A DNA stretch of 64,000 bases from Escherichia coli (GTDB taxonomy: Bacteria > Pseudomonadota > Gammaproteobacteria > Enterobacterales > Enterobacteriaceae), in NCBI RefSeq assembly GCF_013315695.1, contig NZ_CP054353.1; one strand, written 5' to 3'. The notes beneath the pieces are model-generated. The model made no database searches. It worked only from the letters and a program-made list of their open reading frames with translations, and was not told where the DNA came from. Shown here piece after piece: positions 16,575 to 62,393 of the stretch. Numbering within the stretch: the stretch's first letter is position 1; each line of letters opens with the position of its first letter. Both the position numbers and the translations under genes were made by a program.

Positions 16575-16613
16575 CAGTGTATTGGTAGCTAAAAAGCCAG
16601 GGGCGGTAGCGTG
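16575..16613 (+). promoter_or_regulatory. JUMPstart element with ops site (GGCGGTAGCGTG) in the colanic acid operon leader; RfaH-dependent antitermination signal
   Basis: CAGTGTATTGGTAGCTAAAAAGCCAGGGGCGGTAGCGTG about 180 bp upstream of wza; nearly identical to a second copy upstream of rmlB. Confidence 0.75.
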
Positions 16614-31061: not shown

Positions 31062-31162
31062 CAGTTGCATAATCAACCGGATTAATTCTTCGGTAAATAA
31101 CGACAAAAACAAAATTGGCCGTTTCGGTCAGGGCCAACTATTGCCTGAAAAAGGGTAAAGAC

Positions 31163-38131: not shown

Positions 38132-39526
38132 ATGCCATTTAAAAAACTCTCCCGACGCACCTTCCTGACGGCAAGCTCGGCGCTTGCCTTCCTCCATACC
38201 CCTTTCGCTCGCGCGCTTCCCGCCCGACAAATCGTTAACATTAACGACTACAACCCACACGACTGGATCGCCTCATTTAAACAAGCCTTCAGCGAAGGGC
38301 AAACGGTCGTCGTGCCTGCCGGATTCGTTTGTGAAAATATCAACACCGGCATCTTCATTCCTCCTGGCAAAACGTTGCACATCCTTGGAAGCCTGCGCGG
38401 CAACGGCAGAGGGCGTTTTGTCTTACAAGACGGCAGCCAGGTGACAGGGGAGAAGGGCGGCCGTATGCATAACATCACCCTGGATGTGCGCGGTTCTGAC
38501 TGCATCATCAAAGGGTTGGCGATGAGCGGTTTTGGCCCGGTAACGCAGATTTATATCGGCGGCAAAAATAAACGCGTCATGCGCAACTTGACCATCGATA
38601 ACCTGACCGTCAGCCACGCTAATTACGCCATTTTACGCCAGGGATTTCATAACCAGATTATCGGTGCCAACATCACCAATTGTAAGTTCAGCGACTTACA
38701 GGGCGACGCCATTGAATGGAATGTAGCAATCAATGATCGCGACATTTTGATATCCGACCATGTCATCGAGCGCATCAACTGTACTAACGGCAAAATCAAC
38801 TGGGGTATTGGCATAGGACTGGCAGGAAGTACTTACGATAATAATTATCCGGAAAACCAGGCAGTGAAAAACTTTGTCGTTGCGAATATCACGGGATCAG
38901 ATTGTCGGCAACTGATCCATGTTGAAAATGGTAAACATTTTGTTATCCGTAATATCAAAGCTCGTAATATCACGCCGGATTTCAGTAAGAAAGCAGGTAT
39001 TGATAACGCCACAGTTGCTATTTATGGTTGTGACAACTTTGTGATTGATAATATTGAAATGATTAATAGTGCCGGGATGTTAATCGGCTATGGGGTAATT
39101 AAAGGCAAATATCTCTCGATACCGCAGAATTTCCGAGTGAATGATATTCAACTGGATAATACTCATCTTGCTTATAAATTGCGCGGCATCCAAATCTCCG
39201 CCGGGAATGCTGTCTCCTTTGTGGCGCTGACTAACATTGAGATGAAGCGTGCGTCGCTGGAGTTACACAACAAACCGCAACATCTTTTTATGCGAAATAT
39301 CAATGTGATGCAGGAATCCTCAGTTGGACCCGCATTGAGCATGAACTTTGACATGCGCAAAGACGTTCGCGGCGTGTTTATGGCGAAAAAAGAAACACTG
39401 CTGTCTCTTGCAAATGTTCATGCGGTGAATGAAAAAGGACAAATCTCCGTCGATATCGACAGGATTAATCACCATATTGTTAATGTGGAGAAGATTAACT
39501 TTAGATTGCCAGAACGGAGGGAGTAG
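38132..39526 (+). CDS. wcaM: Colanic acid biosynthesis protein WcaM (secreted, beta-helix-like)
   Basis: 464-aa ORF with twin-arginine-like signal ([15 protein letters not shown]); synteny. Confidence 0.92.
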
Positions 39527-40594: not shown

Positions 40595-40851
40595 TGAAAA
40601 TCTGACCGGATGTAACGGTTGATAAGAAAATTATAACGGCAGTGAAGATTAGCGGCGAAAGTAATTTGTCGCGAATTTTCCTGCCGTTGTTTTATATAAA
40701 CAATCAGAATAACAACGACTTAGCAATAGGATTTTAGTCAAAGTTTTCCAGGATTTTCCTTGTTTCCAGAGCGGATTGGTAAGACAATTAGCGCTTGAAT
40801 TTTTCGAGTTAAGCGCGAGTGGGTAACGCTCGTCACATCGTAGGAATGCAT

Positions 40852-40891
40852 GCAGTGCTCTGGTAGCTGTAAAGCCAGGGGCGGTAGCGTG
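40852..40891 (+). promoter_or_regulatory. JUMPstart element with ops site (GGCGGTAGCGTG) in the O-antigen operon leader
   Basis: GCAGTGCTCTGGTAGCTGTAAAGCCAGGGGCGGTAGCGTG about 75 bp upstream of rmlB. Confidence 0.8.
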
Positions 40892-40966
40892 CATTAATAC
40901 CTCTATTAATCAAACTGAGAGCCGCTTATTTCACAGCATGCTCTGAAGTAATATGGAATAAATTAA

Positions 40967-42052
40967 GTGAAGATACTTGTTACTGGGGGCGCAGGATTTA
41001 TTGGTTCTGCTGTAGTTCGTCACATTATAAATAATACGCAGGATAGTGTTGTTAATGTCGATAAATTAACGTACGCCGGAAACCTGGAATCACTTGCTGA
41101 TGTTTCTGACTCTGAACGCTATGTTTTTGAACATGCGGATATTTGCGATGCTGCTGCAATGGCGCGGATTTTTGCTCAGCATCAGCCGGATGCAGTGATG
41201 CACCTGGCTGCTGAAAGCCATGTGGATCGTTCAATTACAGGCCCTGCGGCATTTATTGAAACCAATATTGTTGGTACTTATGTCCTTTTGGAAGCGGCTC
41301 GCAATTACTGGTCTGCTCTTGATGGCGACAAGAAAAATAGCTTCCGTTTTCATCATATTTCTACTGACGAAGTCTATGGTGATTTGCCTCATCCTGACGA
41401 AGTAAATAATAAAGAACAATTACCCCTCTTTACTGAGACGACAGCTTACGCGCCTAGTAGTCCTTATTCCGCATCAAAAGCATCCAGCGATCATTTAGTC
41501 CGCGCGTGGAAACGTACCTATGGTTTACCGACTATTGTGACTAACTGTTCGAATAACTACGGTCCTTATCACTTTCCGGAAAAATTGATTCCACTAGTAA
41601 TTCTTAATGCTCTGGAAGGTAAGGCATTACCTATTTATGGCAAAGGGGATCAAATTCGTGACTGGCTGTATGTTGAAGATCATGCGCGTGCGTTATATAC
41701 CGTAGTTACTGAAGGTCAAGCGGGTGAAACCTATAACATTGGCGGACACAACGAAAAGAAAAACATCGATGTTGTGCTGACTATTTGTGATTTGTTGGAC
41801 GAGATAGTCCCGAAAGAGAAATCTTATCGTGAGCAAATTACTTATGTTGCTGATCGCCCAGGGCATGATCGCCGTTATGCGATTGATGCTGAGAAGATTG
41901 GTCGCGAATTGGGATGGAAACCACAGGAAACGTTTGAGAGTGGGATTCGTAAAACGGTGGAATGGTATTTGGCTAATGCAAAATGGGTTGATAATGTGAA
42001 AAGTGGTGCCTATCAATCGTGGATTGAACAGAACTATGAGGGCCGCCAGTAA
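40967..42052 (+). CDS. rfbB: dTDP-glucose 4,6-dehydratase
   Basis: 361-aa ORF, GTG start, (M)[20 protein letters not shown]..., recognised as RmlB. Confidence 0.95.
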
Positions 42053-42951
42053 TGAATATCCTCCTTTTTGGCAAAACAGGGCAGGTAGGTTGGGAACTAC
42101 AGCGTGCTCTGGCACCTCTGGGTAATTTGATTGCTCTTGATGTTCACTCCACTGATTACTGTGGTGATTTTAGTAACCCTGAAGGTGTGGCTGAAACAGT
42201 CAAAAGAATTCGACCTGATGTTATTGTTAATGCTGCGGCTCACACCGCAGTAGATAAGGCTGAGTCAGAACCCGAATTTGCACAATTACTCAATGCGACT
42301 AGCGTTGAATCAATTGCAAAAGCGGCAAATGAAGTTGGGGCTTGGGTAATTCATTACTCAACTGACTACGTATTCCCTGGAAATGGCGACACGCCATGGC
42401 TGGAGATGGATGCAACCGCACCGCTAAATGTTTACGGTGAAACCAAGTTAGCTGGAGAAAAAGCATTACAAGAGCATTGTGCGAAGCACCTAATTTTCCG
42501 TACCAGCTGGGTCTATGCAGGTAAAGGAAATAATTTCGCCAAAACGATGTTGCGTCTGGCAAAAGAGCGTGAAGAACTAGCCGTTATTAATGATCAGTTT
42601 GGTGCGCCAACAGGTGCTGAACTGCTGGCTGATTGTACGGCACATGCCATTCGTGTCGCACTGAATAAACCGGATGTCGCAGGCTTGTACCATTTGGTAG
42701 CCAGTGGTACCACAACCTGGTACGATTATGCTGCGCTGGTTTTTGAAGAGGCGCGCAATGCAGGCATTCCTCTTGCACTCAACAAGCTCAACGCAGTACC
42801 AACAACTGCCTATCCTACACCAGCTCGTCGTCCACATAACTCTCGCCTTAATACAGAAAAATTTCAGCAGAATTTTGCGCTTGTATTGCCTGACTGGCAG
42901 GTTGGTGTGAAACGCATGCTCAACGAATTATTTACGACTACAGCAATTTAA
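42052..42951 (+). CDS. rfbD: dTDP-4-dehydrorhamnose reductase
   Basis: 299-aa [23 protein letters not shown]...; start overlaps the rmlB stop. Confidence 0.95.
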   Translation: MNILLFGKTGQVGWELQRALAPLGNLIALDVHSTDYCGDFSNPEGVAETVKRIRPDVIVNAAAHTAVDKAESEPEFAQLLNATSVESIAKAANEVGAWVIHYSTDYVFPGNGDTPWLEMDATAPLNVYGETKLAGEKALQEHCAKHLIFRTSWVYAGKGNNFAKTMLRLAKEREELAVINDQFGAPTGAELLADCTAHAIRVALNKPDVAGLYHLVASGTTTWYDYAALVFEEARNAGIPLALNKLNAVPTTAYPTPARRPHNSRLNTEKFQQNFALVLPDWQVGVKRMLNELFTTTAI

Positions 42952-43008
42952 TAGTTTTTGCATCTTGTTCGTGATGGTGGAGCAAGATGAATTAAAAGGA
43001 ATGATGAA

Positions 43009-43887
43009 ATGAAAACGCGTAAAGGTATTATTTTAGCGGGTGGTTCTGGTACTCGTCTTTATCCTGTGACTATGGTCGTCAGTAAACAGCTATTACCTAT
43101 ATATGATAAACCGATGATCTATTATCCGCTTTCTACACTGATGTTAGCGGGTATTCGCGATATTCTGATTATTAGTACGCCACAGGATACTCCTCGTTTT
43201 CAACAACTGCTGGGTGACGGTAGCCAGTGGGGCCTGAATCTTCAGTACAAAGTGCAACCGAGTCCGGATGGTCTTGCGCAGGCATTTATTATCGGTGAAG
43301 AGTTTATTGGTGGTGATGATTGTGCTTTGGTACTTGGTGATAATATCTTCTACGGTCACGACCTGCCTAAGTTAATGGATGCCGCTGTTAACAAAGAAAG
43401 TGGTGCAACGGTATTTGCCTATCACGTTAATGATCCTGAACGCTATGGTGTCGTTGAGTTTGATAAAAACGGTACGGCGATCAGCCTGGAAGAAAAACCG
43501 CTACAACCAAAAAGTAATTATGCGGTAACCGGGCTTTATTTTTATGATAACGACGTTGTCGAAATGGCGAAAAATCTTAAGCCTTCTGCCCGCGGTGAAC
43601 TGGAAATTACCGATATTAACCGTATCTATATGGAACAAGGGCGTTTATCTGTTGCCATGATGGGGCGTGGTTATGCGTGGTTAGACACGGGGACACATCA
43701 GAGCCTGATTGAGGCAAGCAACTTTATTGCAACAATTGAAGAGCGTCAGGGGCTGAAAGTTTCCTGCCCGGAAGAAATTGCTTACCGTAAAGGGTTTGTT
43801 GATGCTGAGCAGGTGAAAGTATTAGCTGAACCTCTGAAAAAAAATGCTTATGGTCAGTATCTGCTGAAAATGATTAAAGGTTATTAA
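43009..43887 (+). CDS. rfbA: Glucose-1-phosphate thymidylyltransferase
   Basis: 292-aa [60 protein letters not shown]..., recognised as RmlA. Confidence 0.95.
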
Positions 43888-43891
43888 TAAA

Positions 43892-44440
43892 ATGAACGTA
43901 ATTAAAACAGAAATTCCTGATGTACTGATTTTTGAACCGAAAGTTTTTGGTGATGAGCGTGGTTTCTTTTTTGAGAGCTTTAACCAGAAGGTTTTTGAGG
44001 AAGCTGTAGGCCGCAAAGTTGAATTTGTTCAGGATAACCATTCGAAGTCTAGTAAAGGTGTTTTACGCGGGCTGCATTATCAGTTGGAACCTTATGCACA
44101 AGGAAAATTGGTGCGTTGCGTTGTCGGTGAAGTTTTTGACGTAGCTGTTGATATTCGTAAATCGTCATCGACTTTTGGCAAATGGGTTGGGGTGAATTTA
44201 TCTGCTGAGAATAAGCGGCAATTGTGGATTCCTGAGGGATTTGCACATGGTTTTTTAGTGCTGAGTGAGACGGCGGAGTTTTTGTATAAGACGACAAATT
44301 ATTATCATCCTCAGAGTGATAGAGGAATAAAATGGGATGATCCAAGCATCAATATTTCATGGCCAGTCGATTCACAAGTGCTGCTATCAGCTAAAGATAA
44401 TAAGCATCCTCCATTAACAAAGATTGAAATGTATAGTTAA
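43892..44440 (+). CDS. rfbC: dTDP-4-dehydrorhamnose 3,5-epimerase
   Basis: 182-aa ORF; RmlC family. Confidence 0.93.
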   Translation: MNVIKTEIPDVLIFEPKVFGDERGFFFESFNQKVFEEAVGRKVEFVQDNHSKSSKGVLRGLHYQLEPYAQGKLVRCVVGEVFDVAVDIRKSSSTFGKWVGVNLSAENKRQLWIPEGFAHGFLVLSETAEFLYKTTNYYHPQSDRGIKWDDPSINISWPVDSQVLLSAKDNKHPPLTKIEMYS

Positions 44441-45710
44441 GATCACGATAAATCTTGGAAGGGTTGCAAAATTGAATAAAATAGTGAGCAAAAGTGAAAT
44501 AAGGAACGTAATCCACAATGCTGGCTATATGATGATTACTCAGATAGCTTTATATGTTGCACCATTATTTATACTGAGTTATCTGTTAAAAACACTGGGG
44601 GTTGCACAGTTTGGTAATTATGCCTTAATACTATCAATCGTTGCATATTTACAGATTATAACGGATTATGGTTTTTCTTTTAGTGCAAGTCGTGCGATCT
44701 CACAGAATAGAGAGGACAAAGAATATATATCAAAAATTTATCTGTCAACTATGACTATCAAGTTGGCGATATGCGCTTTCTTATTCTTATTGCTCATGCT
44801 ATTTTTAAATCTTTTGCCTGTGCAAGCTGAATTAAAACAAGGAATATTATATGGATATCTTCTTGTAATAGGAAATACTTTCCAACCACAATGGTTTTTC
44901 CAAGGTATCGAAAAATTAAAAATCATAGCCCTTTCTAATGTTATATCAAGATGCGCCGCGTGTTTACTTGTATTTATCTATGTGAGGAATAGCGAGGATT
45001 TACAAAAAGCACTTTTAGTACAGTCACTTCCATTAGTAATTTCTGCGATTGGATTAAATATATTTATATTGAAATATATCAATATTATTTTTCCGGAAAA
45101 AAAATTATTTAAGGTAATTTTAAAAGAAGGTAAGGATTTTTTTCTTGCATCACTTTATTCTGTTATTCTCAATAATAGTGGCATTTTTCTATTAGGGATT
45201 TTTACTAATCCTGTTATTGTTGGTGTATATGCCGCCGCTGAAAAGATAGTCAAGGCCGTATTGTCGCTATTTACACCACTGACGCAAGCTATATATCCTT
45301 ATAATTGTCGTAAGTTTTCACTATCCGTATTTGACGGCATTGAGGCAGCAAAAAAAACTGGTATACCAATTATAATTTTAGCATTTATAGCTGCTGTTAT
45401 CGTTGCAATTACCTTACCTGTTGCAATCGACTATCTTAATTTTCCAAAAGAAACAATTTTTGTAGGTCAAATATTAAGTGCATGGATCTTTTTTGGTGTT
45501 CTTAATAATGTATTCGGCATTCAGATATTGAGTGCATCAGGAAGAAGTAAAATATATAGTAGGATGGTATTCGTATCAGCGCTTATAACATTACTTTTGA
45601 TTACTCTATTATTGCAGTTTTGTAACGCCACTGGAGTGGCATGTGCAATATTATTGGGTGAAATGTTCTTATCAATATTGTTACTTAAGCGATATAAAAA
45701 AATAATTTAA
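44424..45710 (+). CDS. wzx: O-antigen flippase Wzx (polysaccharide transporter family)
   Basis: Polytopic membrane ORF, AT-rich. Start uncertain: ATG 44424 overlaps rmlC; alternatives are TTG 44472 (after GGAAGGG RBS) and ATG 44529. Confidence 0.8.
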   Translation: MKCIVKITINLGRVAKLNKIVSKSEIRNVIHNAGYMMITQIALYVAPLFILSYLLKTLGVAQFGNYALILSIVAYLQIITDYGFSFSASRAISQNREDKEYISKIYLSTMTIKLAICAFLFLLLMLFLNLLPVQAELKQGILYGYLLVIGNTFQPQWFFQGIEKLKIIALSNVISRCAACLLVFIYVRNSEDLQKALLVQSLPLVISAIGLNIFILKYINIIFPEKKLFKVILKEGKDFFLASLYSVILNNSGIFLLGIFTNPVIVGVYAAAEKIVKAVLSLFTPLTQAIYPYNCRKFSLSVFDGIEAAKKTGIPIIILAFIAAVIVAITLPVAIDYLNFPKETIFVGQILSAWIFFGVLNNVFGIQILSASGRSKIYSRMVFVSALITLLLITLLLQFCNATGVACAILLGEMFLSILLLKRYKKII

Positions 45711-45719
45711 GGAATAGTT

Positions 45720-46847
45720 ATGAAGAAGTTATTATTAGTGTTCGGTACTAGGCCTGAAGCAATAAAGATGGCCTCTATCATTGAATTATTAAAAAAAGAT
45801 TGTAGATTCGAATATAAAATATGTGTGACAGGCCAACATAAAGAGATGCTTGATCAAGTTATGCAAGTATTTGATGTTAAACCTGATTATAATTTACGGA
45901 TTATGCAGCCTGGGCAAACATTAGTATCTGTAGCAACAAATATACTCTCACGGTTAAGTGAAGTTTTAATTATAGAAAAGCCAGATATTATACTTGTGCA
46001 TGGGGATACAACGACTACCCTTGCTGCTACTTTAGCTGGGTATTACCACCAAATAAAAGTTTGTCATGTGGAAGCAGGATTAAGAACAGGGGATATTTAC
46101 TCTCCTTGGCCTGAAGAGGGCAATCGTAAAGTTACAGGGGCATTAGCATGTATTCATTTCGCCCCAACAGAGAGATCAAAAGATAATCTCCTGAGGGAGG
46201 GTGTCAAAGTAAATAATATATTTGTAACGGGTAATACCGTCATCGACTCTTTATTTATTGCAAAAGATATCATAGATAATGACCCTAATATAAAGAACGC
46301 TTTACATAATAAATTTAATTTTCTTGATAAAAGCCGACGAGTAGTACTTATAACAGGTCATCGAAGAGAAAATTTCGGGAAAGGTTTTGAAGATATATGC
46401 TTTGCAATAAAGGAATTAGCTTTCATTTATCCTAATGTAGATTTTATTTATCCGGTGCATCTTAATCCCAATGTAATGGAACCAGTACATCGTATATTAG
46501 ATAATATATGTAATATTTACCTTATTGAGCCCTTGGATTATTTGCCTTTTGTTTATTTAATGAATGAGTCATATTTAATATTGACTGATTCAGGGGGGAT
46601 ACAAGAAGAAGCGCCTTCGTTAGGTAAACCGGTTTTGGTTATGCGTGATACTACTGAACGCCCTGAGGCGGTTGAGGCTGGTACTGTTGTATTAGTGGGG
46701 ACTTCTAAGATAAAAATAGTAAATAAAGTAACGGAGCTATTAAACAATGCTGATATCTACAATGCTATGTCTCTGTTACATAATCCATATGGCGATGGAA
46801 CAGCTGCTCAAAAAATTCTTAATGTGCTCGCCCAAGAGCTAATTTAA
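45720..46847 (+). CDS. UDP-N-acetylglucosamine 2-epimerase (non-hydrolysing), WecB/MnaA-like
   Basis: 375-aa ORF MKKLLLVFGTRPEAIKMASII...HVEAGLRT...; typical 2-epimerase signatures. Confidence 0.85.
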   Translation: MKKLLLVFGTRPEAIKMASIIELLKKDCRFEYKICVTGQHKEMLDQVMQVFDVKPDYNLRIMQPGQTLVSVATNILSRLSEVLIIEKPDIILVHGDTTTTLAATLAGYYHQIKVCHVEAGLRTGDIYSPWPEEGNRKVTGALACIHFAPTERSKDNLLREGVKVNNIFVTGNTVIDSLFIAKDIIDNDPNIKNALHNKFNFLDKSRRVVLITGHRRENFGKGFEDICFAIKELAFIYPNVDFIYPVHLNPNVMEPVHRILDNICNIYLIEPLDYLPFVYLMNESYLILTDSGGIQEEAPSLGKPVLVMRDTTERPEAVEAGTVVLVGTSKIKIVNKVTELLNNADIYNAMSLLHNPYGDGTAAQKILNVLAQELI

Positions 46848-46861
46848 TTTAAGCTAAAAAT

Positions 46862-47926
46862 ATGTTATTAATTATTGCTGATTATCCAAACGAAATGAAT
46901 ATGCGCGAGGGAGCTATGCAACGAATAGATGCGATAGACTCTCTCATTCGAGATCGCAAGCGAGTGTATTTGAATATTTCATTCAAAAAGCATCTAGTTC
47001 GCTCAAATAGTTCCTTTAATAATGTTATAGTTGAAAATCTAAATGCAATTATTCACAGAAACATCATAAAACAGTACATGCAAAAATCAACAACTATATA
47101 TGTTCATTCTGTTTATAATTTATTAAAGGTTATAACGCTCATTGATCTAAAAAAAACAATTCTTGATATACATGGTGTTGTACCGGAAGAACTTTTGGCA
47201 GATAATAAAAAATTACTTAGTAAAGTATATAACATGGTGGAAAAAAAAGGTGTCCTTGGATGCAAAAAATTAATACACGTCAGTACAGAAATGCAAAAAC
47301 ACTATGAAGCAAAATATGGAGTAAACTTGGCTGAAAGGTCAATAGTGCTCCCGATTTTTGAATATAAAAATATAACCCAATCGCAAAACAAATGGACAGA
47401 AAATAAAATACGAAGTATCTATCTTGGAGGATTACAAACATGGCAAAATATTGATAAAATGATTCAAATTTGTGATGACACAGTGATAAACAATGAAGCA
47501 GGTAAGTATGAATTCAACTTTTTCATCCCACAGAGTAACTTGGAAGGGTTTATAGATAAATATTCGTTAAAATTACATAATATCAATGCTAATGCATCTA
47601 CGCTATCACGTGATGAAGTAATTCCCTTTCTAAAAGAATGTCATATTGGTTTTGTATTGCGCGATGATATAATAGTAAACAGAGTTGCGTGCCCTACAAA
47701 ATTGGTTGAATATTTAGAGTGTGGTGTCGTTCCAGTTGTGCTCTCCCCACTTATAGGTGATTTTTATTCGATGGGATATCAATACATTACTACAGAGGAA
47801 ATGGCTAACAGAAGTATAAGTTTGTTGGATCTTGAAAAAATGGCTGCACATAATTTACAAATTTTGACTTCTTATCAGAAGAGAACCTACAAGGCACAGA
47901 AAGAACTTATTGCTCAACTGTGCTGA
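46862..47926 (+). CDS. Putative O-antigen glycosyltransferase (family not resolved)
   Basis: 354-aa AT-rich ORF inside the O-antigen cluster; no firm family call from sequence alone. Confidence 0.55.
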   Translation: MLLIIADYPNEMNMREGAMQRIDAIDSLIRDRKRVYLNISFKKHLVRSNSSFNNVIVENLNAIIHRNIIKQYMQKSTTIYVHSVYNLLKVITLIDLKKTILDIHGVVPEELLADNKKLLSKVYNMVEKKGVLGCKKLIHVSTEMQKHYEAKYGVNLAERSIVLPIFEYKNITQSQNKWTENKIRSIYLGGLQTWQNIDKMIQICDDTVINNEAGKYEFNFFIPQSNLEGFIDKYSLKLHNINANASTLSRDEVIPFLKECHIGFVLRDDIIVNRVACPTKLVEYLECGVVPVVLSPLIGDFYSMGYQYITTEEMANRSISLLDLEKMAAHNLQILTSYQKRTYKAQKELIAQLC

Positions 47927-47977
47927 ATTTTTTACATATATAAAATTATGTAAGCATATCGCGGGTCAGGTAATTGT

Positions 47978-48982
47978 ATGCGTATCAAATATAAAGATAA
48001 CGGTTATATATTATGTTTTCTATTATGTTTCATTTTGAGCTACTTAGTTTTACTCAAATCTGACTACTTTCCTGCTGATTTTCTGCCATATACAGAAATA
48101 TACGATGGGACATACGGAGAAATCAATAATATTGAGCCTGCCTTTTTATATTTAACACGGTTGTTTCATTATTTAAATTTCCCCTATATATTTTTTGCAA
48201 TGTTAGTTTGTGCCTTATGTTTAAGTTGGAAAATAAAATATGCAAGAAAAATAATTAAAGATAGTTATATATATTTATTCTTGTATGTATATGTATCATT
48301 TTATGTGTTTTTGCATGAAATGACTCAATTGCGCATAGCAATTGCAGTCACTATGTGCTATGTGTCGGTTTATTATTACTTTTATAAAAATTGTATTAAA
48401 CATGCACTGCCATGGATGGTGTTGGCTATTTTGTTTCATTACAGCGCCTTGCTTTTATTTATGTCATTATTTATATACAGTTATAGGAGGTTATTAATAG
48501 TAATTATAGGGTTTGTAATATGTATGAGCTTTTTAAACGTGTATGCAGATACAATTGCACTATATTTGCCAAATGAAAAAATAGTAAATTATTTATATAG
48601 TATTTCATCATCATTAGACAATAGAAATGATTTGGCAATATTCAACCTGAATAATATAATATTTTTATCAATATTTATTTTGATCTTTTATCTTAGCCGA
48701 TATATAAAATTAAATGATAATGAGGCGAAGTTTATTAAGTATGTGCAATGTTCAGGAATATTAGCCTTTTGTATTTTCTTTCTGGCTAGTGGAGTCCCGG
48801 TCATTGCTTATCGAACTGCAGAGTTGCTGCGAATATTTTATCCGATGGCTTTAGTATTAATCCTTTCGCATATAAAAAATAATAATATGCGTTATTTTAT
48901 TGCAGTCATTATAGTTATCCTTTCAGGCTTAATGTTGTTTATAACACTAAGGGCTGTATCAATAGTTGGTCAAGGATTATAA
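47978..48982 (+). CDS. wzy: Putative O-antigen polymerase Wzy (EpsG-like multi-pass membrane protein)
   Basis: 334-aa highly hydrophobic, Phe/Tyr/Leu-rich, very AT-rich ORF; position and composition typical of wzy. Confidence 0.7.
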   Translation: MRIKYKDNGYILCFLLCFILSYLVLLKSDYFPADFLPYTEIYDGTYGEINNIEPAFLYLTRLFHYLNFPYIFFAMLVCALCLSWKIKYARKIIKDSYIYLFLYVYVSFYVFLHEMTQLRIAIAVTMCYVSVYYYFYKNCIKHALPWMVLAILFHYSALLLFMSLFIYSYRRLLIVIIGFVICMSFLNVYADTIALYLPNEKIVNYLYSISSSLDNRNDLAIFNLNNIIFLSIFILIFYLSRYIKLNDNEAKFIKYVQCSGILAFCIFFLASGVPVIAYRTAELLRIFYPMALVLILSHIKNNNMRYFIAVIIVILSGLMLFITLRAVSIVGQGL

Positions 48983-48983
48983 A

Positions 48984-49943
48984 ATGAATGTTGCTATTTT
49001 GTTGTCTACGTATAATGGCGAAAAATATTTAGAGGAACAACTGGATTCATTGCTGCTTCAAAGTTATCAGGATTTTGTAGTGTATATCCGTGATGACGGA
49101 TCATCTGATAGAACTGTAAATATAATAAACCAATACGTAATGAAAGATAACAGATTTATTAACGTGGGTAATTCAGAAAATCTTGGTTGTGCTGCTTCGT
49201 TTATTAATTTATTAAGAAATGCTTCAGCCGATATTTATATGTTTTGTGACCAAGATGATTATTGGCTTCCGAATAAATTACAGCGTGCTGTGGATTATTT
49301 TTCGGCTATTGATCCTTTACAACCTACCTTGTATCATTGCGATCTAAGCGTTGTTGATGAAAAACTTAATATTATACAAAATTCATTTTTGCAGCATCAG
49401 AAAATGTCAGCGTATGATTCAATGAGAAAAAATAATCTTTTCATACAAAATTTTGTTGTTGGTTGTTCATGTGCTGTTAATGCTTCACTTGCGGAATTTG
49501 TTCTTTCGCGAATTGGAGAGCAGCATGTAAAAATGATAGCTATGCATGACTGGTGGTTAGCCGTGACTGCAAAACTTTTTGGTCGAATCCATTTTGATAA
49601 TACTCAAACGATTCTTTATCGACAACATCAGGGCAATGTATTAGGTGCAAAATCATCAGGTATGATGCGTTTTATTCGATTAGGATTAAATGGGCAAGGG
49701 ATTTCGCGAGTAGTATCTTTTAGAAAAAAAGTTTGTGCGCAAAATAAGCTTCTTTTAGATGTCTATGATAAAGATTTAAATCTTGAGCAAAAAAAATCTA
49801 TCAGGCTTGTAATTGAGGGCCTTAAAGAGAACTCTTCAATTGCTGACCTTTTAAAATGTTTCTATCATGGTAGCTATATGCAAGGTTTTAAACGTAATCT
49901 TGCCTTAATATATTCAGTTCTTTACACAAAAAAAAGAAGATAG
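48984..49943 (+). CDS. Family 2 glycosyltransferase (rhamnosyltransferase-like)
   Basis: ORF track starts at 48966; ATG 48984 gives MNVAILLSTYNGEKYLEEQLDSLLLQSYQDFVVYIRDDGSSD, classic GT2 N-terminus. Confidence 0.8.
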   Translation: MNVAILLSTYNGEKYLEEQLDSLLLQSYQDFVVYIRDDGSSDRTVNIINQYVMKDNRFINVGNSENLGCAASFINLLRNASADIYMFCDQDDYWLPNKLQRAVDYFSAIDPLQPTLYHCDLSVVDEKLNIIQNSFLQHQKMSAYDSMRKNNLFIQNFVVGCSCAVNASLAEFVLSRIGEQHVKMIAMHDWWLAVTAKLFGRIHFDNTQTILYRQHQGNVLGAKSSGMMRFIRLGLNGQGISRVVSFRKKVCAQNKLLLDVYDKDLNLEQKKSIRLVIEGLKENSSIADLLKCFYHGSYMQGFKRNLALIYSVLYTKKRR

Positions 49944-49952
49944 TGTATCCTT

Positions 49953-51017
49953 ATGAAAAAAATTGCTATTATCGGTACTGTTGGCATACCAGCATCATAT
50001 GGCGGATTTGAAACATTAGTTGAAAATTTAACAAGATACAATTCCTCGGGAGTTGAATATAATGTTTTTTGTTCATCGTTTCACTACAAATCCCACCAAA
50101 AAAAACATAATGGGGCCCGTTTAATTTATATTCCGCTTAAAGCCAATGGATGGCAGAGCATTGCGTATGACATAATTTCGTTAGCATATTCTATTTTTTT
50201 GAAGCCTGATGTGATTCTGATTTTAGGGGTTTCTGGTTGTTCATTTTTGCCTTTCTTCAAACTCTTAACACGCGCTAAGTTTATTACTAATATTGATGGC
50301 CTGGAATGGCGAAGAGATAAATGGAATTCAAAAGTGAAACGTTTCTTAAAATTTTCAGAAAAAATCGCAGTTCAATATTCGGATGTCGTTATTACGGATA
50401 ATGAGGCAATTTCTGAGTACGTTTTTAACGAGTATAATAAAGATAGCCGAGTTATTGCCTATGGAGGGGATCATGCATGGTTAAATACTGAGGATGTATT
50501 TACAACAAGAAATTATAAAAGCGATTACTACCTTTCTGTATGTCGTATCGAACCCGAAAACAATGTAGAATTAATTTTAAAAACATTTTCAAAGCTAAAA
50601 TATAAAATAAAATTTATTGGAAATTGGAATGGCAGCGAGTTTGGAAAGAAACTTAGGCTGCATTATTCTAACTATCCAAATATTGAAATGATTGATCCGA
50701 TTTATGATCTTCAACAATTATTTCACTTACGAAATAATTGCATAGGATATATACATGGTCATTCGGCTGGAGGAACAAACCCTTCTTTAGTCGAGGCAAT
50801 GCATTTTAGTAAACCTATATTTGCATATGATTGTAAGTTTAATAGGTACACTACTGAAAATGAAGCATGTTATTTTTCTAATGAATCTGACCTCGCAGAG
50901 AAAATCATAATGCATTGTGAGCTATCATTAGGTGTCTCTGGCACGAAAATGAAAGAAATTGCTAACCAGAAATACACTTGGAGACGAATAGCAGAAATGT
51001 ATGAGGATTGCTATTAA
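49953..51017 (+). CDS. Family 1 (GT4-type) glycosyltransferase
   Basis: 354-aa ORF MKKIAIIGTVGIPASYGGFETLVENL..., typical of O-antigen GT1 enzymes. Confidence 0.8.
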   Translation: MKKIAIIGTVGIPASYGGFETLVENLTRYNSSGVEYNVFCSSFHYKSHQKKHNGARLIYIPLKANGWQSIAYDIISLAYSIFLKPDVILILGVSGCSFLPFFKLLTRAKFITNIDGLEWRRDKWNSKVKRFLKFSEKIAVQYSDVVITDNEAISEYVFNEYNKDSRVIAYGGDHAWLNTEDVFTTRNYKSDYYLSVCRIEPENNVELILKTFSKLKYKIKFIGNWNGSEFGKKLRLHYSNYPNIEMIDPIYDLQQLFHLRNNCIGYIHGHSAGGTNPSLVEAMHFSKPIFAYDCKFNRYTTENEACYFSNESDLAEKIIMHCELSLGVSGTKMKEIANQKYTWRRIAEMYEDCY

Positions 51018-51121
51018 CTCTGTTAAACTTCAAATCTTTTACAATATATGGCATGACTATAAGCGCATTAATTGTTTTTCAAGCCGCTCTCGCGGTGACC
51101 ACCCCCTGACAGGAGTAAACA

Positions 51122-52528
51122 ATGTCAAAGCAACAGATCGGCGTCGTCGGTATGGCAGTGATGGGGCGCAACCTTGCGCTCAACATCGAAAGCCGTGGTT
51201 ATACCGTCTCTATTTTCAACCGTTCCCGTGAAAAGACGGAAGAAGTGATTGCCGAAAATCCAGGCAAGAAACTGGTTCCTTACTATACGGTGAAAGAGTT
51301 TGTTGAATCTCTGGAAACGCCTCGTCGCATCCTGTTAATGGTGAAAGCAGGTGCAGGCACGGATGCTGCTATTGATTCCCTCAAACCATATCTCGATAAA
51401 GGTGACATCATCATTGATGGTGGCAATACCTTCTTCCAGGACACCATTCGTCGTAACCGTGAACTTTCTGCCGAAGGCTTTAACTTCATTGGTACCGGTG
51501 TCTCCGGTGGTGAAGAAGGCGCGCTGAAAGGTCCTTCTATTATGCCTGGTGGGCAGAAAGATGCCTATGAACTGGTTGCACCAATCCTGACCAAAATCGC
51601 CGCAGTAGCTGAAGACGGGGAGCCATGCGTTACCTATATTGGTGCCGATGGCGCAGGCCATTATGTGAAGATGGTTCACAACGGTATTGAATACGGCGAT
51701 ATGCAGCTGATTGCTGAAGCCTATTCTCTGCTTAAAGGTGGCTTGAACCTTTCCAACGAAGAACTGGCGCAGACCTTTACCGAGTGGAATAACGGTGAAC
51801 TGAGCAGCTACCTGATTGACATCACTAAAGACATCTTCACTAAAAAAGATGAAGACGGTAACTACCTGGTTGATGTGATTCTGGATGAAGCGGCTAACAA
51901 AGGTACCGGTAAATGGACCAGCCAGAGCGCGCTGGATCTCGGTGAACCGCTGTCGCTGATTACCGAGTCTGTGTTTGCACGTTATATCTCTTCTCTGAAA
52001 GATCAGCGTGTTGCCGCATCTAAAGTTCTCTCTGGCCCGCAAGCGCAGCCAGCAGGCGATAAAGATGAGTTCATCGAAAAAGTTCGCCGTGCACTGTATC
52101 TGGGCAAAATCGTTTCTTACGCTCAGGGCTTCTCTCAACTGCGTGCGGCGTCTGAAGAGTACAACTGGGATCTGGACTACGGCGAAATCGCGAAGATTTT
52201 CCGTGCTGGCTGCATCATCCGTGCGCAGTTCCTGCAGAAAATCACCGATGCTTATGCCGAAAATCCGCAGAGCGCTAACCTGCTGCTGGCTCCGTACTTC
52301 AAGCAAATCGCCGATGACTACCAGCAGGCGCTGCGCGATGTCGTCGCTTACGCGGTACAGAACGGTATCCCGGTTCCGACCTTCGCCGCTGCGGTTGCCT
52401 ATTATGACAGCTACCGCGCCGCTGTTCTGCCTGCGAACCTGATCCAGGCACAGCGTGACTATTTCGGTGCGCATACTTATAAGCGCATTGATAAAGAAGG
52501 TGTGTTCCATACCGAATGGCTGGATTAA
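51122..52528 (+). CDS. gnd: 6-phosphogluconate dehydrogenase (decarboxylating)
   Basis: 468-aa [45 protein letters not shown]..., recognised as Gnd. Confidence 0.97.
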
Positions 52529-52556
52529 TCTGATTTAATCAACAATAAAATTGAGG

Positions 52557-52586
52557 CCCGGCGTATATTATGCCGGGTTTTTTTTA
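52557..52586 (+). terminator. Rho-independent terminator after gnd
   Basis: Hairpin CCCGGC-GTATATTAT-GCCGGG followed by T9. Confidence 0.75.
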
Positions 52587-52766
52587 CCAATTATCTTATA
52601 GACTAAATTTCACTGCTTAATATTAACTTAATAAATATCAGCTATTCTTATAAAGAAATTCTGAATTGTTTTTCGTTGCGTTGACCATCTTACAACGTAG
52701 CGTTAAAACTTTTAACTCTTATCAGGATGCTAAAAACATCATGATTCACAGTTAAGTTAATTCTGA

Positions 52767-53942
<1,176 letters not shown>

Positions 53943-53951
53943 CATCCTGTT

Positions 53952-53983
53952 ATCAGGGCTATTTACGCCCTGATTGTCTTTTG
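53952..53983 (+). terminator. Putative rho-independent terminator after ugd
   Basis: Hairpin ATCAGGGC-TATTTAC-GCCCTGAT followed by a T-rich tract. Confidence 0.6.
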
Positions 53984-54087
53984 TTACTTGCGTAACAATT
54001 CATTATTTTTATCAATTATCCTATAGCATTCATGAGGATTATCGCTAAACTATGCGGACTTGGAAATTTCCGTCAGTTAGGGTAATG

Positions 54088-55068
54088 ATGAGAGTAGAAA
54101 ATAATAATGTTTCTGGGCAAAACCATGACCCGGAACAGATTGATTTGATTGATTTACTAGTGCAGTTGTGGCGTGGCAAGATGACAATCATCATTTCCGT
54201 CATTGTGGCTATTGCCCTGGCTATTGGATATTTGGCAGTAGCGAAGGAGAAATGGACGTCAACAGCAATTATCACTCAGCCCGATGTGGGGCAAATTGCT
54301 GGCTATAACAATGCCATGAATGTTATCTATGGTCAGGCTGCACCGAAAGTATCGGATTTGCAGGAGACGTTAATTGGTCGCTTCAGTTCTGCCTTCTCTG
54401 CATTAGCAGAAACGCTGGATAATCAGGAAGAACCAGAAAAACTTACCATCGAACCTTCTGTTAAGAACCAGCAATTACCATTGACTGTTTCTTATGTTGG
54501 GCAAACTGCAGAGGGCGCACAAATGAAGTTGGCCCAATACATTCAGCAAGTTGACGATAAAGTGAATCAAGAGTTAGAAAAGGATCTCAAGGACAACATT
54601 GCTCTGGGACGGAAAAACTTGCAGGACTCTTTAAGAACGCAGGAAGTGGTTGCGCAGGAGCAGAAAGATCTGCGTATCCGTCAGATTCAGGAAGCGTTGC
54701 AGTATGCGAATCAGGCGCAGGTGACAAAACCGCAGATTCAACAGACTGGCGAAGATATCACACAAGATACGTTGTTCCTTTTGGGGAGCGAAGCGCTGGA
54801 GTCGATGATTAAGCATGAGGCGACCCGTCCGTTGGTGTTCTCACCAAACTACTATCAGACTCGTCAAAACCTGCTTGATATCGAAAGCTTAAAGGTTGAT
54901 GATCTTGATATTCATGCTTACCGCTATGTAATGAAACCGACGTTACCTATTCGTCGTGATAGCCCGAAAAAGGCAATTACCTTGATTCTGGCGGTGCTGC
55001 TGGGTGGCATGGTTGGCGCGGGGATTGTGCTGGGGCGTAATGCTCTACGCAATTACAACGCGAAGTAA
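54088..55068 (+). CDS. wzzB: O-antigen chain length determinant (polysaccharide co-polymerase) WzzB
   Basis: ORF track starts at 54052; trimmed to MRVENNNVSGQNHDPEQIDLIDLLVQLWRGK..., 326 aa. Confidence 0.95.
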   Translation: MRVENNNVSGQNHDPEQIDLIDLLVQLWRGKMTIIISVIVAIALAIGYLAVAKEKWTSTAIITQPDVGQIAGYNNAMNVIYGQAAPKVSDLQETLIGRFSSAFSALAETLDNQEEPEKLTIEPSVKNQQLPLTVSYVGQTAEGAQMKLAQYIQQVDDKVNQELEKDLKDNIALGRKNLQDSLRTQEVVAQEQKDLRIRQIQEALQYANQAQVTKPQIQQTGEDITQDTLFLLGSEALESMIKHEATRPLVFSPNYYQTRQNLLDIESLKVDDLDIHAYRYVMKPTLPIRRDSPKKAITLILAVLLGGMVGAGIVLGRNALRNYNAK

Positions 55069-62197: not shown

Positions 62198-62244
62198 TTT
62201 CTTATTCCTCTTTAAACCTGTCTGAACCGTTATCAACCGCGCAA

Positions 62245-62280
62245 TAAAAAAGCCCCCGGAAGGTGATCTTCCGGGGGCTT
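62245..62280 (-). terminator. his operon attenuator terminator (leader region)
   Basis: On the minus strand: GCCCCCGGAAGATCACCTTCCGGGGGC hairpin followed by TTTTTT, between hisL and hisG. Confidence 0.8.
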
Positions 62281-62342
62281 TCTCATGCGTTCATGCACCA
62301 CTGGAAGATCTGAATGTCTTCCAGCACACATCGCCTGAAAGA

Positions 62343-62393
62343 CTAGTCAGGATGATGGTGATGATGGTGGTGTTTAAATTGAACGCGTGTCAT
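62343..62393 (-). CDS. hisL: his operon leader peptide (MTRVQFKHHHHHHHPD)
   Basis: Minus-strand ATG at 62393; 16 codons including seven consecutive His codons, then TAG. Confidence 0.9.
   Translation of the reverse strand: MTRVQFKHHHHHHHPD

Follow-up and report, generated by a model that had tools for sequence, protein, structure and literature searches.

The element upstream of rmlB in the stretch of DNA analysed here (a 64-kb window from E. coli) is a JUMPstart/ops element, which in itself is ordinary textbook biology and already known. We consider it very probable that this element is the leader signal of the O1 O-antigen operon, that it is paired with an equivalent signal ahead of the colanic-acid genes, and that the pair acts by loading RfaH. 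Through the JUMPstart/ops signal, RNA polymerase acquires the anti-termination factor RfaH; JUMPstart was reportedly described by Hobbs and Reeves in 1994, the ops/RfaH mechanism has been solved at the structural level, and E. coli normally has a second copy ahead of its colanic-acid genes. What carries the identification here is sequence, family, position, strand, identity to verified sites, missing Shine-Dalgarno sequences and AT-richness; the loading of RfaH, with the consequences it would have, is taken from the literature. The practical value of the result is in annotation, since the element indicates the regulatory boundary at the 5' side of the O1 O-antigen and colanic-acid operons, and comparison of genomes makes small additions to this: the copies have stayed distinct, and no natural E. 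coli genome searched shows recombination between them.

Two JUMPstart elements in the window

By its sequence, the window holds the O1 O-antigen locus of E. coli, preceded by the colanic-acid cluster (Table 1), and its genes run in the order yegH, wza-wcaM, galF, rmlBDAC-wzx-wzy, gnd, ugd, wzzB and his. The galF-rmlB spacer is 100% identical to that of E. coli isolate AF3 (NZ_OZ547117.1), and positions 40595-55000 differ from the same record by 1 mismatch in 14,406 nt. The annotation of AF3 reads wcaA...wcaM, galF, rfbBDAC, O1 wzx, wecB, a glycosyltransferase, O1 wzy, GT2, DUF1972, gnd, ugd, wzzB and his, and the O-antigen operon of the window comprises rmlB, rmlD, rmlA, rmlC, O1 wzx, a wecB-like epimerase, a glycosyltransferase, O1 wzy, a GT2 gene and a DUF1972 glycosyltransferase. 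The wcaM gene (38132-39526, plus strand) is intact here and is split by an IS1A insertion in AF3, an otherwise near-identical O1 isolate. The Rfam search also returned RNA features outside the leaders: the tandem SIB RNA genes are the sibA/sibB antitoxin RNAs, opposite ibs toxin ORFs and inside a 330-bp tandem duplication; the algC RNA motif occupies the cpsB (manC)-cpsG (manB) spacer within the colanic-acid operon; and the histidine operon leader stands where it is expected, upstream of the his genes.

Table 1. Features of the 64-kb window, with positions counted from its first nucleotide
Feature	Position	Strand	Basis
SIB RNA genes, tandem	532-674, 861-1009	-	Rfam RF00113, 142 and 150 bits
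JUMPstart element, colanic-acid (wza-wcaM) operon leader	16575-16613	+	Rfam RF01707, 57.3 bits
ops site, colanic-acid leader	16602-16613	+	exact match
Colanic-acid operon wza-wzb-wzc-wcaA...wcaM	16792-39526	+	ORFs; annotation of homologous records
algC RNA motif	31109-31158	+	Rfam RF02929, 78 bits (gathering score 33.8)
galF terminator-like hairpin and T-run	40652-40682	+	terminator scan; K-12 alignment
Nearly invariant 43-nt block CAGGATTTTCCTTGTTTCCAGAGCGGATTGGTAAGACAATTAG	40749-40791	+	conserved in 7/7 E. coli genomes compared
JUMPstart element, O-antigen (O1 rfb) operon leader	40853-40891	+	Rfam RF01707, 60 bits
5-bp stem CUGGU/GCCAG with 9-nt loop	40860-40878	+	Rfam model structure line
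ops site GGCGGTAGCGTG, O-antigen leader	40880-40891	+	exact match, non-template (coding) strand
O-antigen operon	40967-51017	+	ORFs; names from NZ_OZ547117.1 annotation
Histidine operon leader/attenuator	62244-62367	-	Rfam RF00514, 132 bits

The original prediction had placed an element at 40852-40891. The 40-mer quoted for it, GCAGTGCTCTGGTAGCTGTAAAGCCAGGGGCGGTAGCGTG, occurs there on the plus strand with zero mismatches and had 0 matches in shuffled windows, but the canonical 39-bp element and the Rfam match begin at 40853, so that the sequence was exact and the interval one 5' base too long. In an Rfam search of the whole window, both 39-mers match the JUMPstart model RF01707 (gathering score 35 bits) over its full length, model positions 1-38 of 38. 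The 39-bp consensus with two GGTAGC repeats and GGCGGTAGCGTG at its 3' end is present in both copies, which share the reading CAGTG...TGGTAGC...AAGCCAGGGGCGGTAGCGTG. The ops 12-mer itself has exactly two exact occurrences in the 64 kb, at 16602 and 40880, both on the plus strand; at up to one mismatch its expected count is 0.33, and at least two occurrences were obtained in 4 of 100 shuffles. Both elements are intergenic and on the strand of the operon that they precede, one between galF and rmlB, 75 nt 5' of the rmlB GTG (40967), and the other 178 nt 5' of the wza ATG (16792).

Compared position by position, the rmlB and wza copies are identical at 34 of 39 positions (87%), with the layout CAGTG-(TAT/CTC)-TGGTAGCT-(AA/GT)-AAAGCCAGGGGCGGTAGCGTG; the five substitutions, wza copy against rmlB copy, are TAT for CTC at positions 6-8 and AA for GT at positions 17-18. 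The claim that the whole 3' core is common to both holds, as the 21-nt block AAAGCCAGGGGCGGTAGCGTG, ops included, is exact in each, and so does the placing of the copies about 24 kb apart in one orientation (24,278 bp, both on the plus strand). To call them nearly identical was slightly generous at 87%, although the likeness and the 21-nt exact block stand. The pairwise alignment that had been proposed as a check thus extends the likeness well past the 12-bp ops core. A repeat search joins the copies over 50 nt at 80% identity, at the same spacing, in a stretch that runs 11 nt beyond the 3' end of the element; outside it the flanks are unrelated.

Both copies were followed through seven E. coli genomes (the window, K-12 MG1655, CFT073 (O6), an O103 strain, an O2:K1 APEC and two further strains). 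The wza copy is identical at 39/39 positions in all seven; the rmlB copy matches at 39/39 those of K-12, CFT073 and O103, at 38/39 those of two strains and at 36/39 that of one. A scan of one genome per species returned 72 stretches with the element, nearly all from Enterobacterales, where it again occupies two sites, one behind galF and the other in the yegH-wza spacer. With one exception the yegH-wza copies have T at position 8, and with two exceptions, both of them Salmonella with close variants, they contain GCTAAAAAGCC; the copies downstream of galF nearly always have C at position 8 and mostly read GCTGT(T/A/C)AAGCC. Escherichia and Citrobacter show these signatures in both copy types, and Salmonella shows its own in the wza copy; on six contigs both copies are present in the same orientation. 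As a separate observation, six short contigs filed under other taxa (Arthrobacter sp., Erysipelotrichia MAG, Peptococcaceae MAG, uncultured Tenericutes, Bacillus sp. and Lachnospiraceae MAG) carry galF-JUMPstart-rmlB of the E. coli type, with proteins that are 97-100% identical, which is almost certainly contamination or mis-binning in those six assemblies.

Chance, recombination and cassette exchange

Could the likeness between the copies be fortuitous, or be confined to ops, without a longer JUMPstart element around it? Nothing favours this except the short length of the element, and we give it practically no credence: the copies agree at 34 of 39 positions, each matches the entire Rfam model with a score far over the gathering threshold, no shuffle matched the 40-mer, and dozens of species have this 39-mer at the orthologous place, on which grounds chance resemblance was rejected. 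A different use of the same repeat had been put forward in the original prediction, which saw in the two copies a potential substrate for recombination. As directly oriented repeats spaced by 24,278 bp, with a 21-nt exact block, they could be a working substrate for intrachromosomal exchange, leading to deletion of the 24-kb colanic-acid/galF segment, to its duplication or to gene conversion of the leaders. We regard this as very improbable. Junction queries were built for the deletion (left flank of the wza side, shared core, right flank of the rmlB side) and, reciprocally, for the duplication, and were compared with 5,426 complete E. coli genomes, a hit being a single place that covers at least 80% of the query. 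Neither the deletion junction nor the duplication junction was found in any of the 5,426 (0/5,426), the deletion query being one that detects only genomes with rmlB as the first O-antigen gene, and the halves of the queries occur separately in more than 4,800 genomes. In addition, seven diverse E. coli all show the same five differences between the copies, Citrobacter and Salmonella retain the wza-type and galF-type signatures, with no homogenisation of the copies, and the exact block is shorter than the roughly 23-27 bp that efficient RecA-dependent recombination in E. coli needs as a minimum. Recombination as a frequent event was rejected on the lack of junctions in the genomes searched and the maintained differences, and this part of the prediction found no support; the two copies appear to have remained different for a long evolutionary time and show no trace of gene conversion.

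Exchange between strains is another matter. JUMPstart may serve as the left-hand crossover point at which O-antigen cassettes are exchanged, and may be conserved in part as the boundary between common flank and serogroup-specific DNA; we hold this to be possible but rather unlikely. When CFT073 (O6) is compared with the window, 252/263 positions agree upstream, 39/39 in the element and then 44/116, the drop in homology beginning 1-2 nt past the element. Among the 20 matches listed in the search of the 5,426 genomes, 5 are partial matches to the galF-rmlB spacer that end at query positions 296-298, which are window positions 40890-40892, and the element is conserved enough to be a standard PCR primer site for O-antigen clusters (PMC3715488). 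However, in FDAARGOS_772 the homology ends upstream, just past the promoter-like block, and this strain has its own variant of the element; moreover, homology would be expected to break off at the border of a functionally constrained element even if it had no dedicated role in recombination. A role at the cassette edge does not, in any case, compete with the loading of RfaH, which remains the reading that we prefer for the element.

The O-antigen leader and the proposed loading of RfaH

Several features of the galF-rmlB spacer bear on how the O-antigen operon would be transcribed. The terminator-like hairpin behind galF (40652-40672 without the T-run) is still paired in K-12, where G-C pairs of the stem have become A-T by changes in both arms, which suggests that the hairpin is a real terminator insulating the O-antigen operon from upstream transcription. 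Beyond it, the 43-nt block at 40749-40791 is kept even in genomes whose flanks diverge on either side: in FDAARGOS_772 all similarity is lost immediately after it, and in the APEC O2 strain the block is kept in a spacer that is merely 69% identical upstream (183/264). From its conservation, this block is probably the O-antigen promoter. Its putative parts are a -35 TTGTTT (40760-40765), a 17-nt spacer and a -10 GACAAT (40783-40788), which agree with the sigma-70 consensus at 7/12 positions, a poor match; scans of both intergenic regions for consensus promoters gave nothing convincing near the elements and did not call the block. The covarying hairpin followed by an invariant promoter-like block points to a separate transcription unit that would start upstream of the element, and the ops site at 40880 is intergenic and downstream of both. 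Upstream of wza, no RcsAB box was found with the consensus TAAGAATATTCCTA at up to 3 mismatches. Folding of the leader RNA over 40795-40975 gave no unusual stability (z = -1.58) and no sign of a larger structured leader.

There is no AGGAG-like Shine-Dalgarno sequence at proper spacing before wza or rmlB, the first genes of the two operons, and there is one before the internal genes rmlD and rmlA and before gnd, a separate gene downstream, a distribution consistent with recruitment of the ribosome through RfaH. The GC content of the serogroup-specific part of the O-antigen operon is 28-36% over 44-51 kb, which would make it the kind of H-NS target that RfaH is reported to counter-silence; in AT-rich, H-NS-bound DNA, RfaH has been described as counteracting silencing and driving elongation (PMC9765446).

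The sequence of events that we propose is as follows. Transcription would start at a promoter between galF and the element, probably in the conserved block described above, and RNA polymerase would transcribe the untranslated leader and pause at ops, the T11 of which is position 40890. The exposed non-template strand would fold there to a small hairpin in which RfaH would read G5 and T6; RfaH would then remain on the polymerase, with NusG excluded. Across the long AT-rich operon, pausing, Rho-dependent termination and the blocks to elongation set by H-NS/StpA would be suppressed, and the refolded C-terminal domain of RfaH would bring in the ribosome at a first gene without a Shine-Dalgarno sequence. 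The rfaH gene is absent from the 64-kb window; in E. coli its place is elsewhere on the chromosome. RfaH is a known virulence determinant, and the prediction that follows is that O-antigen expression in this strain depends on it.

The ops sequence is a consensus pause at which the polymerase stops at U11; a small hairpin forms in the non-template strand, and T6 is flipped into RfaH; the bases C3, G4, G5, T6, A7 and G8 are required for the recruitment of RfaH, with G4, G5, A7 and G8 essential, and T11/G12 drive the pause; and RfaH remains bound to the polymerase, keeps NusG off it and brings the 30S subunit to leaders without a Shine-Dalgarno sequence (PMC5995543). All the bases reported there for recruitment and pausing are present in both copies, and the 12-nt GGCGGTAGnnTG that defines an ops site is found on the non-template strand at 40880 and at 16602. 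In CFT073, ChIP-seq has located RfaH at eight loci with ops in a non-template leader, and the signal is gone in an rfaH deletion (PMC9765446). The O-antigen operon (wzx) is among those bound in the wild type, whereas at wza-wcaM, the promoter of which is normally silenced, RfaH was seen only in an hns stpA mutant (PMC9765446). With full-length Rfam matches and 39/39 identity to the leaders of CFT073 that carry RfaH in ChIP (PMC9765446), the claim that both polysaccharide operons of the window are built for RfaH control appears well supported, and such control was already known, being stated for the rfb and wca operons in earlier literature that cites the original work. As the colanic-acid promoter is normally silent, RfaH would act there only after Rcs-type activation of initiation, and its appearance only in the hns stpA mutant suggests that the wza copy is idle under ordinary conditions. 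Four other GGCGGTAG 8-mers occur in the window, at 6125, 16015, 19873 and 29385 (plus strand), all of them inside ORFs, without the T11/G12 pause bases and without JUMPstart context. In CFT073 34 intragenic ops-like sites bound no RfaH (PMC9765446), which suggests that these four do not load it either. Most of the genomes compared also have the 8-mer in wcaI (29385).

The RfaH-ops model by itself does not account for what the 27 nt preceding ops do. The stem in this half of the element pairs positions 8-12 with 22-26 (window 40860-40864 and 40874-40878); the rmlB copy forms 5/5 pairs and the wza copy has U-G for one C-G. Over 39 distinct variants, 97.9% of stem cells are paired, a figure for which the search pattern itself fixed 3 of the 5 pairs; at pair 9-25, 4 double changes preserve the pairing (three A-U, one G-C) and 3 cases are unpaired. 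From the 3' end of the stem (G26 of the element) to the ops pause position downstream of it (U38) the distance is 12 nt, and the loop has a signature that goes with position, UAAAAA at wza and UGU(A/U/C)AA after galF, and that persists across Escherichia, Citrobacter and Salmonella. At his-type pauses, nascent-RNA hairpins act on the paused polymerase at 12-nt spacing. From this distance and the position-specific loop one may speculate that the hairpin could tune the ops pause: the dwell time at ops, and hence the efficiency of RfaH loading, might not be the same in the O-antigen operon, which is constitutive, as in the colanic-acid operon, which is stress-induced, an idea to which we attach little probability. 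If it were true, the 5' half of JUMPstart would be more than padding. The stem-loop itself has been reported earlier (PMC2864571).

Comparison with known leaders

The closest counterpart of the O-antigen leader is that of the K-12 rfb operon, in which the same element (39/39) lies about 260 nt downstream of galF and, as here, 75 nt upstream of rmlB, with flanks that agree with the window at 247/263 positions upstream and 108/110 downstream. The O6 leader of CFT073 has the same 39/39 element at the same position, about 260 nt downstream of galF. In the comparison with these K-12 and CFT073 leaders, the only difference is in the serogroup cassette downstream, which is O1 here, O6 in CFT073 and, in K-12, what we take to be the remnants of O16. 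The ops sites of the rfa/waaQ, hly, kps and tra operons, which lie outside this window, are alike, as described in the literature, in having a common 12-nt ops in a non-template leader and in the loading of RfaH at the paused polymerase (PMC5995543, PMC9765446). The JUMPstart of the colanic-acid leader, attributed to Stout 1996 as cited in PMC9976346, belongs to the same family as that of the O-antigen leader and shares with it the 21-nt 3' block, the orientation and the 5-bp stem. It differs in its five substitutions, of which one makes the first stem pair U-G instead of C-G, and in the length of the leader, which spans 178 nt up to the start codon, compared with 75 nt in the O-antigen operon; it also differs in its promoter, which is H-NS-silenced and Rcs-dependent, so that RfaH acts there only on induction.
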